This document shows, one piece after another, positions 14,877-60,753 of a DNA stretch of 64,000 nt (position 1 is its first letter; every line of letters starts with the position of its first letter). The stretch spans positions 929,951-993,950 of the forward strand of contig CAVXHJ010000010.1 of the NCBI GenBank assembly GCA_963761435.1, written 5' to 3'. The notes under the pieces were generated by a model. It was not told where the DNA came from. It ran no database searches and saw nothing but the letters and a program-made list of their open reading frames with translations. Source of the DNA: an uncultured Alphaproteobacteria bacterium (GTDB lineage Bacteria > Pseudomonadota > Alphaproteobacteria > Rhizobiales > Beijerinckiaceae). The position numbers and the translations under genes are program-made.

Positions 14877-16440
14877 ACGCGGCCGTTCCCGCTCCGCCGC
14901 TCTACGAGACCATCTCGCCAACGCTGCGATGGCTCTTGACCGTCTGCATCATGATGGCGACAATCATGCAGGCGCTCGACACGACCATCGCCAACGTCGC
15001 CCTGCCCTATATGCAGGGTTCGCTCTCGACGACCCAGGACCAGATCAACTGGGTCCTGACCTCCTACATCGTCGCCGCGGCGATCATGACCTCGCCGCTC
15101 GGGTGGATGGCGGCCCGCTTCGGGCGCAAGCGGCTGTTCATCGTCTGCACCGCCGGCTTCACCGTCGCCTCTATGCTGTGCGGGGTTGCGCTCACGATCG
15201 AGCAGATGGTCGCCTACCGGCTCTTGCAGGGCGTGTTCGGCGCGGCGCTGGTGCCCCTCTCCCAAGCGGTGATGCTCGACATTTTTCCCCGGCGCGGCGC
15301 GGCTCGGCGATGGCGATCTGGGGCATGGGAGTGATGCTCGGGCCGATCATGGGTCCGACGCTGGGGGGCTTTCTCACCGACTCCTATTCCTGGCGCTGGG
15401 TATTCTTCGTCAACCTTCCATTCGGAATTCTCACCACCGCGGGCTTATGGCTCTTCATGAGCGAAACCCCGACCCGCCGGGACGTGCCCTTTTCCTGGTT
15501 CGGTTTCCTGAGCCTCTCGCTTGGCATCGGATCCTTGCAGATGATGCTCGATCGCGGCGAACAGCTCGGCTGGTTCGATTCGCCCGAGATCATCCTCGAG
15601 ACGATCCTCGCTTGCGTCGGCTTCTACTTCTTTCTCGCCGACTGCTTCACCTCCAGCCGGCCGTTCATCACCGTTCGCATTTTCCGCGACTGGAATTTCT
15701 CCATCGCCCTCGTCTTCATGTTCCTGATCGGCATCATCCTGCTCGCGACCATGGCCCTGGTGACGCCGTTCATCCAGAACATGCTTGGCTACCCGGTGCT
15801 GTCGAGCGGCTATCTGCTTGGCACACGGGGCATCGGCACATTCGTGGCGATGTTCCTGGTCGGGCGCCTCAGCGGCAAGGTCGATGCGCGCCTGCTCATC
15901 TTCATCGGCCTCGTGTTGGCGACCTCGTCGCTCTGGCTGATGGTCGGCTGGTCGCTTGACGTCCCGGCGAGCGTCATCGCCATCAATTCGGTCGCGCAGG
16001 GGTTCGGCCTCGGCTTCATCTTCGTGCCGCTCAACACCATCGCCTTCGCCAGCCTGCCGGGCGAACTGCGCACCGAGGGCGCCGCTCTGTGGACGCTGAT
16101 CCGCAACATCGGATCGGCGGTCGGCATCTCGATCGTCATCGCCCGGCTGACGAGCTCGATCACCATATTCCACAGCCAGCTCGTCGAGCACGTGACGCCG
16201 TTCAACGACGCGATGCGAATGCCCAACGCCTCGATGCTCTCGGGACACGGCTTGCCGAGTCTGGCGATGCTCGAAGGCATCGTCACCCAGCAGGCGGCGG
16301 CGATGGCCTATTCGAACGATTTCCTGTTCATGACCTTCATTTCGCTCTGCGCCTTCCCGCTGCTCGCTCTCATCCGCTCGCCGAAGTCGGTGGCCGCGGC
16401 CGCGTCTCGTGAAGCCGCGGCCCATGCGGTGATGGACTAG
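14873..16440 (+). CDS. emrB: EmrB/QacA DHA2 MFS efflux permease (frameshift near 15288)
   Basis: MQALDTTIANVALP, WVLTSYIVA, WRWVFFVNLP, LDRGEQLGWF; break at the homopolymer ATTTTTCCCCGG. Confidence 0.92.
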
Positions 16441-16626
16441 AGCCTGTTGCGTTCGGGCGGAGCCAGACTCGTCATTTGCGAGCGTGAGCGAAGCAATCCA
16501 TGAGAATGTCGGGCCTTGCGTTCCCCTGGATTGCCTCGTCGCCATAGCCCGTCGGAGACGGGCGTTCGGAAGAACGCCTATCGCTCCTCGCGACTGACGA
16601 TTCCAGGCCGGCGCAAGCTGCTCCAG
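16437..16626. repeat. MITE-like element B enclosing a GTCATTGCGAG-type REP doublet
   Basis: GTCATTTGCGAGCGTGAGCGAAGCAATCCA..TGGATTGCCTCGTCGC..CTCCTCGCGACTGAC palindrome; left end TGTTGCGTTCGGGCGGAGCCAGACT recurs inverted at ~38650-38690; degenerate ends CTAGAGCCTGTTGCG / CGCAAGCTGCTCCAG. Confidence 0.65.
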
Positions 16627-16678
16627 GCCGTCGATCCGGTCGATGACGCCAATGGCGCCGGTCAGACCCAAGCCTGGA

Positions 16679-16891
16679 GGAAGCCCAGCAAAGACTCCGG
16701 GAAGCCCAGCAAAGGAAACCGGAAGCGGGGCAAAGGAATCCGGAAAGGTATCAAAGGAAAACCCTTCCGCGGATTGGGCCTTTTCAATGGGTTACGACGA
16801 TCCGGGGCAAAAACCCGCTTCTCCGCGCCGCTCCTCGAGGCGGCGCGTTCGGCGACAGGACCACTCTATCCGTGGTTTCTGATAATCGCAA
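16679..16891 (-). repeat. Dispersed cassette copy 1: sigma70-like promoter, hairpin, conserved core, four 21-nt repeats
   Basis: Minus strand TTGCGA (16886-91) N17 TAGAGT (16863-68); core GGATTGGGCCTTTTCAATGGGTTACG 16771-96; GGAA-starting 21-mers at 16679, 16700, 16721, 16742. Confidence 0.75.
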
Positions 16892-16901
16892 GAAAAAGTC
16901 G

Positions 16902-17192
16902 CGCTCTTATGGCGTTATCTGTTGGTCGACCGGTTTGCTGTTCGTTCGTCGAACCCTTGCCGTCATGGCCGGGCTTGTCCGGCCATCCACGCCGGGCCGC
17001 CGCAAGAACGAGTCCCGCCTCGGCGCGACGGCAGGAAGGCGGACGGTCGCAAGGCTTTTCGCGCTTGCCTGCGTAGATGCGCTGGGCCTTCGGGATGGCC
17101 GGGACAAGCCCGGCCATGACGCCTTGATGGCGCCGTCCGCCACCTCCGCCATGCTCCCGATTCCTTCCCCACAACAGCCAACGATAAGAGCG
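16902..17192. mobile_element. MITE A copy 1
   Basis: Terminal inverted repeats GCTCTTAT..ATAAGAGC (imperfect to ~23 bp); internal REP-like doublet GTCATGGCCGGGCTTGTCC.. / ..GGACAAGCCCGGCCATGAC; no transposase. Confidence 0.85.
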
Positions 17193-17195
17193 GCT

Positions 17196-17491
17196 GGCTC
17201 TTATGGCGTTATGTGTTGGTCGACCGGTTTGCTGTTCGTTCGTCGAACCCTTGCCGTCATGGCCGGGCTTGTCCCGGCCATCCACGCCGGGCCGCCGCAA
17301 GAACGAGTCCCGCCTCGGCGCGACCGGCAGGAAGGCGGACGGTCGCAAGGCTTTTCGCGCTTGCCTGCGTAGATGCGCTGGGCCTTCGGGGATGGCCGGG
17401 ACAAGCCCGGCCATGACGCCTTGATGGCGCCGTCCGCCACCTCCGCCATGCTCCCAATTCCTTGCCCACAACAGCCAACGCGATAAGAGCG
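17196..17491. mobile_element. MITE A copy 2 (tandem with copy 1)
   Basis: Near-identical direct repeat of copy 1, separated by 3 nt. Confidence 0.85.
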
Positions 17492-37326: not shown

Positions 37327-37402
37327 TGGCGCTCCCAAGGGGACTCGAACCCCTGTTTTCGCCGTGAGAGGGCGACGTCCTGGACCGCTAGACGATGGGA
37401 GC
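37327..37402 (-). tRNA. tRNA-Glu (anticodon CTC)
   Basis: GCTCCCATCGTCTAGCGGTCCAGGACGTCGCCCTCTCACGGCGAAAACAGGGGTTCGAGTCCCCTTGGGAGCGCCA: cloverleaf, TTCGA T-loop, encoded CCA. Confidence 0.97.
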
Positions 37403-38396: not shown

Positions 38397-38432
38397 GGGC
38401 GCCGGCGCCGGCCGCAGGCCGCCAAATCTCGC

Positions 38433-38728
38433 GGAAGCCGAGCAAAGACTTCGGGAAGCCGAGCCAAGACAAAAGGAAGCAGAGCAAAATCCGCCGGAAA
38501 GGTATCCAAACTTTTCTCTTCCGCGAATCGAGCCTTTTCAACGGGTTGCGGCGAATCCAGATCGAAAAACCGGGCTTGCCTCAGGCCAGGCTTCTCAGCC
38601 GCGTCTCGCCTGCCATTTCTCCCGGCGCCTGAGCGCCGGGCGGCAGGGTTCGCAATGACCAGTCTGGCTCCGCCCAAACGCAACATGCATTAATCAGAAA
38701 GTCTACCCTGATTTTCTCTTTTTCGCAA
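38433..38728 (-). repeat. Dispersed cassette copy 2
   Basis: 21-mers at 38433, 38454, 38475, 38496; core GAATCGAGCCTTTTCAACGGGTTGCG 38525-50; minus-strand TTGCGA (38723-28) N17 TAGACT (38700-05); contains an element-B end at ~38650-38690. Confidence 0.75.
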
Positions 38729-38738
38729 GCAATTTCGC

Positions 38739-39028
38739 GGCTCTTATGGCGTTATCTGTTGGTCGACCGGTTTGCCTGTTCGAACCCTTGCCGTCATGGC
38801 CGGGCTTGTCCCGGCCATCCACGCCGGGCCGCCGCAAGAACGAGTCCCGCCTCGGCGCGACCGGCAGGAAGGCGGACGGTCGCAAGGCTTTTCGCGCTTG
38901 CCTGCGTCGATGCGCTGGGTCTTCGTGGATGGCCGGGACAAGCCCGGCCATGACGCCTTGATGGCGCCGTCCGCCACCTCCGCCGTGCTCCCAATTCCTT
39001 CCCCACAACAGCCAACGCGATAAGAGCG
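38739..39028. mobile_element. MITE A copy 3 with 8-bp target-site duplication
   Basis: Near-identical to copies 1 and 2; flanked by the direct repeat AATTTCGC (38731-38 and 39029-36). Confidence 0.88.
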
Positions 39029-60028: not shown

Positions 60029-60415
60029 CTACCAGCCGCCGTTGCCGAAGCCGAAGTTGGTCCCGACATAGGCGCCCGTCCATCGCCATACCGGCGGCGT
60101 GATCCAGGTCGGCTGCACATAGACGAACGGCGGCGGCATTTCGTCGCCCGGCAATGTCGCCGGCGGCGGGCCCAGAACCACCGCTTCGGCCGGGATATAG
60201 CCCGACAAATGCCGCCACGAGGCCCGGCACCAGCCGCGCGGGCATCTCTTGTCAACCTCGATCTCGGCGCTCGCCGGGACGCGCTGCACGACCGCCGCCT
60301 TCCCCGATGGCGCGGCGCGCATCGTGACGTGTGATCCCGTCATCGCGAGCTCGGCGAAAGCCGGACTGGCCAACCCGACGGCGAATAAGACCACAAAAGC
60401 AACCCGTCCAATCAT
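60029..60415 (-). CDS. Secreted bacterial SH3-domain protein
   Basis: Signal peptide; VTMRAAP..C..GWC..SGYI. Confidence 0.75.
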
Positions 60416-60565
60416 CCAGCCGGACTCCCTGCTCCAGCAATCAGGATAGCCGCTTGGCCCGGGCGGGTCGAGGGGCGGCCGAGTTCCGCATCAGGAAAGC
60501 TGGGGCGGCGGCCCAGGAAAACTGGCGAAAATCCACGAAAACGAAATTGCTGTTTTTTGCTTTTT

Positions 60566-60694
60566 GGAATTGAGGCTTTTCAGAGTGTTACGGACAATTC
60601 AAATGCTTTCTTTGCTCCTCGTTTCTCTGCCTAGCACGCGGCTTCGCTAGTCGGCGAAAGAGAACCTTATAGCGTATATTTCTGCTTTTCGCAA
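60566..60694 (-). repeat. Dispersed cassette copy 3 (divergent, no MITE)
   Basis: Minus-strand TTGCGA (60689-94) N17 TATAAG (60666-71); CTAGC..GCTAG hairpin; core GGAATTGAGGCTTTTCAGAGTGTTACG. Confidence 0.6.
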
Positions 60695-60753
60695 GTCATA
60701 TCCACGACGCGTTTCCTCATGTCGTTTTGCCGCAACGCCAGCCCGCAGAGCGG

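Follow-up and report, generated by a model that had tools for sequence, protein, structure and literature searches.

Three short loci in a 64,000-nucleotide stretch of DNA (the window) are very probably gene-less shells of a cassette, the complete form of which carries a gene resembling that of a small terminase (terS). Judged by its sequence, the cassette is a real, DNA-level element with a predicted function. The reading that we prefer, with a probability of roughly 0.55, is that shells and terS modules are dispersed TerS-plus-pac start sites, from which a head-tail gene cluster of the host would carry out headful packaging. What points to a packaging module is that the cassette joins TerS-like, pac-like and IHF-site-like parts, and that the resident large terminase (TerL) often has no TerS of its own. 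The genome that holds the window (G000) is a 4.8-Mb assembly of 65% GC and is 85% complete.

Copies in the window

All three copies lie on the minus strand. Each is made up of a promoter-like motif, a spacer, a core and a tail, and MITEs lie beside two of them:

16863..16891, minus strand: copy 1 promoter-like motif, -35 TTGCGA, N17 with the conserved AATCAGAA, -10 TAGAGT
16797..16862, minus strand: copy 1 spacer of 66 nt, subfamily A, occupying the place of the terS gene
16780..16796, minus strand: copy 1 core, IHF-site-like, with literal TTGATA variants in relatives
16668..16779, minus strand: copy 1 tail, about 9 T-rich units with a 10.5-bp period, sTTCC type; predicted TerS-binding/pac array
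16902..17192, unstranded: MITE beside copy 1, of a family of about 296 bp with GCTCTTAT termini, 11 nt upstream of the copy 1 -35
17196..17491, unstranded: second tandem copy of the same MITE of about 296 bp, near copy 1
38700..38728, minus strand: copy 2 promoter-like motif, TTGCGA/TAGACT; orthologous site in 4/5 relatives, the fifth contig stopping short
38551..38699, minus strand: copy 2 spacer of 149 nt, extended by a piece of another genomic repeat (11 matches elsewhere in the genome)
38534..38550, minus strand: copy 2 IHF-like core, also at the orthologous site in 5/5 relatives
38422..38533, minus strand: copy 2 phased tail, sTTCC type; four aligned relatives carry a different tail sequence here
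38739..39028, unstranded: MITE beside copy 2, inserted 11 nt upstream of the copy 2 -35
60666..60694, minus strand: copy 3 promoter-like motif, TTGCGA/TATAAG
60593..60665, minus strand: copy 3 spacer of 73 nt
60576..60592, minus strand: copy 3 IHF-like core
60516..60575, minus strand: copy 3 shorter tail, A-tract units and then TTTC units; the orthologous gap lacks it in 5/5 relatives

The promoter-like sites named in the preliminary description are present at 16891, 38728 and 60694, with TTGCGA set 17 nt from TAGAGT, TAGACT or TATAAG, and the shared core that it reported was recovered at the three core positions listed above. In copies 1 and 2, four 21-nt units starting with GGAA do stand in identical register (starts 16679/16700/16721/16742 and 38433/38454/38475/38496). 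The distance from unit 4 to the core had been given as 29 nt; measured from the start of that unit, it is 38 nt in both copies. Treating the 21-nt unit as two helical turns was right as to phasing, but the true repeat unit is its 10.5-bp half. Copies 1 and 2 point at the 3' ends of convergent genes, as had been described, whereas copy 3 is followed by a co-directional gene. The window also holds an Rfam ar45 sRNA (482-635), a speF leader (644-802) and a tRNA-Glu (37327-37402), which have no relation to the cassettes.

The cassette family

A scan for further copies, of the kind suggested at the outset, was run with an iterated nhmmer model (E<=1e-3), and it returned 118 copies in G000 and 0 in the reversed genome. 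The copies include subfamily A, with 34 near-identical recent members (among them copy 1), and the older types B, C and D. Subfamily A was cut to one or two copies for the matrix, phasing and periodicity tests. From upstream to downstream, a cassette has the -35 TTGCGA, the conserved AATCAGAA, an extended -10, a spacer mostly of 65-170 nt, a 17-nt core and the tail. A promoter matrix, trained on the same cassette copies that it scored, exceeded 12 upstream of 104 of the 118 copies and in 1 of 400 random windows. Genome-wide, 126 promoter sites scored above 20, and 102 of these had a core within 300 nt (reversed control, 3); among the remaining 24, several carry a diverged core or a spacer with a MITE inside it.

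Autocorrelation of the tail peaks at 10, 21 and 42, which gives a period of 10.5 bp. The commonest chains in the 83 non-redundant copies have nine units (20/83) or seven (19/83), and B- and C-type tails open with two or three inverted units that are followed by direct ones. The claimed likeness of the core to an IHF site held up well: 67 of the 83 non-redundant cores have at most one mismatch from the IHF consensus, and the literal TTGATA form of the core is found in many relatives. The cassette thus has an array of sites one helical turn apart next to a core that looks like a bending site, as pac and cos sites do.

As for genomic setting, 84 of the 118 copies face an opposite-strand gene, compared with about 47% expected from crude gene calls. 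This enrichment in convergent gaps fits tolerated parasites equally well as functional sites. In an informal comparison on C10 and C1, cassette strand and replichore showed no clear pattern. Two copies have unusual surroundings. The degenerate cassette at C10:290991+ immediately precedes a co-oriented gene that looks like lexA, and at C1:378217 to 376897 (minus strand) the gap between promoter and core measures 1.3 kb and contains an apparent broken transposase gene.

Peptide, RNA and repeat readings

Three interpretations had been offered for the loci: a short peptide, a small RNA, and an iteron-like nucleoprotein site with IHF. The third survives, in view of the 10.5-bp period and of the many cores near the IHF consensus, and the other two do not. 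The idea that core and tail encode a short RNPLK... peptide drew on a 21-nt unit that preserves frame and on the similar translations of copies 1 and 2. It is already largely refuted, and we give it almost no credence. Among 71 non-A spacers, ATGs near the start number 6, 7 and 8 over the three frames, which leaves no in-frame start bias, and the RNPLK frame itself has the most stops (57 vs 42 and 43); there are also stops within B-type tails and frameshifts among A copies.

In a second reading, the shells would be a multicopy sRNA family driven by the conserved promoter, and its active part would be the pyrimidine-rich tail. The preservation of the promoter motif in 104 of 118 copies would be accounted for in this way, as would the finding that most copies have no co-directional gene for that promoter to serve. 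We nevertheless hold it to be improbable: the cassettes had no match in an Rfam search, no consensus pair appeared in 22 aligned copies, and copy 1 folds no better than its shuffled versions (z=0.23). Helical phasing and an IHF-like site are DNA-level features, and in complete cassettes the core overlaps or follows the stop codon and the tail changes with the clade of the protein.

The cassette was also rejected as a MITE or non-autonomous IS, as it has no terminal inverted repeats, no fixed ends and no target duplication. The ends of subfamily A are ragged on both sides and lie within REP/MITE mosaics, so that subfamily A is not itself a MITE. Guide-like captured spacers were rejected as well: matches elsewhere in the genome were found for 17 of 72, nearly all of them single matches or repeats. 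A search of shell spacer translations for terS remnants gave none.

The complete cassette and its protein

The promoter at C10:621309+ in G000 had seemed an orphan. It is followed by a 168-aa helix-turn-helix (HTH) gene and then by core and tail, and is one complete cassette, with the only full-length cassette gene in G000. In complete cassettes, an HTH gene of 160-170 aa stands between promoter and core. From several hundred matches, 98 high-scoring gene-bearing loci of relatives, outside the cluster, were examined; the promoter is present in 80 of them and the core in 85. In 63 loci the distance from promoter to core is 489-855 nt, with the terS-like gene alone inside. The last 25-45 nt of several B and C shell spacers align to the segment that precedes the core in gene-bearing cassettes. 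The cassette genes are under purifying selection (dN/dS 0.16-0.56 in 12 pairs), with internal stops in 2 of 98.

In 23 of the 30 loci of the head-tail cluster, a full-length homologue of the cassette protein abuts the start of terL, which argues that the cassette protein is, by position, a small terminase (TerS). A homologue also lies directly upstream of terL in two loci of another genus. All members match phrog_645 (45/45), five of the 45 match a TerS phrog, and the top viral Foldseek matches are phage HTH/TerS proteins. The best phage match, gp1 of Gordonia phage Jace (E 9e-3), overlaps the start of its terL, and a weaker match in phage Tonitrus is encoded four genes upstream of its terminase. 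Helices are predicted at 16-31, 36-43, 47-62, 66-89, 93-112 and 121-151, which would give an HTH, a hairpin and a C-terminal segment. The structure model has a pTM of 0.38 and matches G20c/P74-26 TerS in the PDB only weakly (E 0.5-1.2; Z 6.9, with the HTH alone aligned); a wide structure search returned nothing but generic helical hairpins. Sigma70_r4 matches 17 of 36 members. The cassette proteins have a sigma-4-like recognition helix, which is diverged in the cluster copy, and both retain a C-terminal helix. A single supported branch (97/93) divides the cluster proteins from those of the cassettes.

Protein and tail

One residue of the recognition helix, the one before R[IV]R[QK]I, tracks the tail motif, so the cassette protein may bind its tail in a base-specific way. 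Over 85 loci (13 of the 98, in which no core was detected, were excluded) and with tail motif definitions refined after a first look at the data, E goes with yTTGG in 41/44, S with TTTA in 11/11 and R with sTTCC in 9/13, and Q is mixed. Arg-G and Glu-C pairings make chemical sense. The link is confounded by the physical linkage of gene and tail, and phylogenetically independent pairs, too few to give the test adequate power, are not significant (at best, for R/K, 6 pairs, 3.1 the same way and 0.1 opposite, p 0.25). In G000 the full-length cassette gene is of the Q type, and 61 of the 118 tails, including those of copies 1 and 2, are of the sTTCC (R) type; no R-type cassette gene was found in this 85%-complete assembly. 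The mismatch counts against a simple picture of a residue code.

The resident head-tail cluster

The large terminase that the cassettes would use belongs to a predicted gene transfer agent (GTA), known here from its genes:

G000 C1:280000-300339, minus strand: GTA-like head-tail cluster (L076), RcGTA-like tail genes and non-RcGTA head genes

In G000 the cluster has genes for TerL, portal, protease, adaptor and tape measure, together with the RcGTA-like tail genes. A putative capsid of 490 aa was assigned by position only and is single-copy in 16 of 151 family genomes. G000 carries a second, partial portal. TerL is present in 58 of 61 genus genomes, with a dN/dS of 0.14-0.17. Coverage of the cluster is partial or split in four of five compared genomes: it is partial in G022 and G010, and most head-tail genes fell outside the stretches compared for G054 and G024. 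A literature search for a GTA-like cluster with RcGTA-like tail genes found no paper.

The cluster terS copy encodes a protein that keeps an N-terminus of HTH length, and it has no cassette promoter or tail of its own. In place of the cassette promoter, the cluster promoter carries a LexA-like box: 23 of 30 loci have GAAC-N7-GAAC ahead of the cluster, and a coding control gave it in 1 of 30. GTTC-N7-GTTC is described as the alphaproteobacterial LexA motif (PMC3323433). A promoter common to cassettes and cluster operon was considered and rejected, the sole strong matrix match in C1:268000-302000 being a divergent truncated cassette. Upstream of terL, G000, G051, G017 and G003 all carry a divergent truncated cassette core.

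Seven loci have no intact cluster terS. One is a contig end, and in the other six (G000, G051, G017, G003, G054 and G001) the gene has decayed in different ways. This decay, in the presence of a conserved TerL, suggests replacement in trans. The remnants (loci L045-L049 and L061) take several forms. In G000 there is a 40-aa internal deletion with both ends retained, while G051 and G017 have a short stub, G003 and G054 a highly diverged ORF, and G001 frameshifts.

A prophage distinct from the cluster lies at C19:7400-40000 in G000, and it has a portal and a terminase pair of its own. Cassettes might then hijack the packaging of transient temperate phages and not that of the resident cluster, in the way that a SaPI TerS pairs with helper-phage TerL (PMC6687093). 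We see little likelihood in this: the C19 prophage has its own, different-looking gene at the small-terminase position, the viral contigs and the phage collection searched yielded nothing closely related to the cassette protein, and its nearest relatives found are the cluster genes.

Distribution and spread

Homologues of the cassette protein are present in 41/41 and 61/61 genus genomes, with 1-38 matches per genome; these figures include the cluster gene and are not copy numbers. At the level of the order, a sample of 300 genomes gave none, and a family sample of 150 gave single matches in 4 genomes of other genera. The core pattern has up to 120 matches per genome in the genus, where 54 of 61 genomes are positive; among 147 genomes from other genera, none has more than 5. 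In G355 the cluster gene alone is present, and the core pattern is absent. Since database labels name Roseiarcus, this is the likely genus.

The copy 2 site is occupied in 5/5 relatives, with different tails in the four that could be aligned. Copies 1 and 3 are absent from 5/5, and at copy 1 the neighbouring gene differs too. Copies are thus gained and kept over species distances. Comparing the copy 2 site (38422-38728) with L156, L157, L159 and L160, both tails and spacers differ, which suggests tail turnover or conversion in place. At copy 1, the contigs compared showed no clean empty-site joint. At the copy 3 site (window 60400-60750), two relatives (L153 and L154) carry a different element, with repeated CCCTGTT units and an oppositely oriented IHF-like site, which may belong to a second family built on the same plan.

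The flanks of subfamily A (e.g., window 16440-16670) contain REP-like units that are apparently circularly permuted between copies, and many of the flank junctions are at CTAG/TTAG/TTAA. Lying as it does in ragged REP/MITE mosaics, the recent subfamily A likely moved as their cargo. The 296-bp MITE with GCTCTTAT termini has 8-bp target duplications in 36/61, and 48 of its 169 ends lie 10-11 nt upstream of a cassette -35, in both orientations and often in tandem stacks. This MITE is presumably ISL3-like; an autonomous ISL3 partner was sought, and the PF01610/ISL3 transposase was not found in the G000 assembly.

A proposed model for packaging from dispersed sites

In the packaging reading that we prefer, the cassette protein is predicted to form a TerS ring. 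The cognate tail would wind around this ring, likely with the help of a bend made by IHF, and the ring would bring in TerL from the GTA-like cluster via the C-terminal helix that both TerS groups have. Headful packaging of the neighbouring chromosome would then begin at the cassette, and gene-less shells would be served in trans. Ring formation, IHF binding, TerL recruitment, particle production and packaging are all steps that we infer. The 10.5-bp phasing of the tail would suit such a ring: in SPP1-like phages, the HTH motifs of the TerS ring are described as spaced by one turn of DNA, with perhaps 100 bp or so wound around the ring (PMC4737164). In lambda cosB, sites for TerS stand together with one for IHF (PMC4669245), TerL is bound by the C-terminus of TerS in lambda and P22 (PMC9611059), and SaPI TerS redirects helper-phage TerL to its own pac (PMC6687093). 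Against a pac role, it gives no account of why gene-less shells retain a promoter.

A TerS-derived protein could also bind the tails with no coupling to packaging, for autoregulation by promoter looping, nucleoid organisation or terminase block, and the shells would then be selfish or neutral leftovers. Shells do keep promoter and core together, and spacer lengths have a period of about 11.5 nt, as looping would need (jitter p 0.001; 0.056 without the modal 82-91 cluster). The promoter motif includes a partial palindrome, TTCTGA-N3-TCAGAA, over the -35 (complementarity at that centre averages 0.48). Shells avoid pointing into genes, and for some dispersed genes the match to the profile ends at about position 115, without the C-terminal helix. 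We still think such uncoupled binding unlikely, as most cassette proteins retain the C-terminal helix that they have in common with cluster TerS, the TerL-binding segment in lambda and P22 (PMC9611059), and as the loss of cluster terS beside a conserved TerL speaks for replacement in trans.

The packaging reading can be extended, much more tentatively and with the odds somewhat against it, to a GTA with programmable start sites over the whole chromosome. Recognition would have been handed to a radiating family of stand-alone TerS proteins, each reading its own phased array by a one-residue code; a hundred gene-less shells would mark the starts, and competing TerS-site pairs would decide which regions are transferred. 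If this is true, the cassette would be the smallest known packaging parasite or accessory, with one gene and its site. GTAs are described without discrete packaging start sites or known binding sites, as far as the accounts in PMC6854486 and, for start sites, PMC7947584 extend. The cassettes offer exact coordinates, orientations and a predicted cognate protein, so that one particle-DNA sequencing run could test site-directed GTA packaging. DNA recognition by TerS is unsettled, and dozens of natural TerS-array pairs that vary together could offer a ready specificity code. Even without a role in packaging, the cassettes form a repeat family that extends over the genus, numbers up to about 120 copies and derives from a terminase gene.

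Comparison with known systems

A literature search, with most subscription papers and supplements outside its scope, found no description of dispersed terS-plus-array cassettes. The Caulobacter CIR, REP/RIME and MITE repeats of Alphaproteobacteria are intergenic, multicopy and enriched between convergent genes, and some have IHF sites. Set beside these repeats, cassettes are likewise intergenic, multicopy and placed between convergent genes. However, they are asymmetric, without terminal inverted repeats or target duplications, and their gene-bearing form encodes a TerS-like protein and not a transposase.

The gene for the TerS of SaPI and PICI islands, like that of the cassette protein, lies outside the packaging operon of the helper. 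The island TerS has its own pac site, redirects the TerL of another element and can mobilise unlinked chromosomal DNA as well (PMC6687093), which the cassette protein, with its predicted cognate site, would do too. Unlike these satellites, the cassette has one gene, without an integrase, replication or excision module. It measures about 0.8 kb or 0.25 kb, in contrast to an island, and one chromosome can hold as many as a hundred copies or more, most of them without the gene. Its likely helper is a resident domesticated cluster. With P22 pseudo-pac sites, the cassettes would have in common that headful packaging of host DNA starts on the chromosome, which is predicted here and described there (PMC10996546). 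Pseudo-pac sites are chance look-alikes, whereas the cassettes are homologous, multi-part and derived from a gene-bearing unit.

The closest parallels in design are with phage packaging sites. As in the pac of SPP1/SF6, read by a ring-shaped HTH TerS, the cassette protein would have an HTH, a helical hairpin and a C-terminal segment (PMC4737164). As in that pac and in lambda cosB, about 100 bp of sites are spaced one turn apart with mixed inverted and direct units (PMC4737164, PMC4669245), and the IHF-like site adjoins the tail as site I1 accompanies the R sites in cosB (PMC4669245). No cut site was identified in the cassettes. Unlike these phage sites, they lie outside a phage genome and away from terL, are multicopy and have their own sigma70-like promoter.

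Like RcGTA and the Caulobacter GTAs, the cluster is vertically kept and mostly single-copy (PMC6854486, PMC7947584), and like RcGTA it has distal tail, hub, NlpC/P60 and megatron genes. It departs from RcGTA in its control, with a LexA-like box before terS; no GafA/DUF6456 activator was found in G000 (85% complete). In these same sources, as far as they go, RcGTA TerS has no HTH and no discrete start sites are known (PMC6854486, PMC7947584), whereas the TerS here has an HTH. The head genes are not of the RcGTA type and, unlike in RcGTA, dispersed TerS paralogues carry candidate sites with them.
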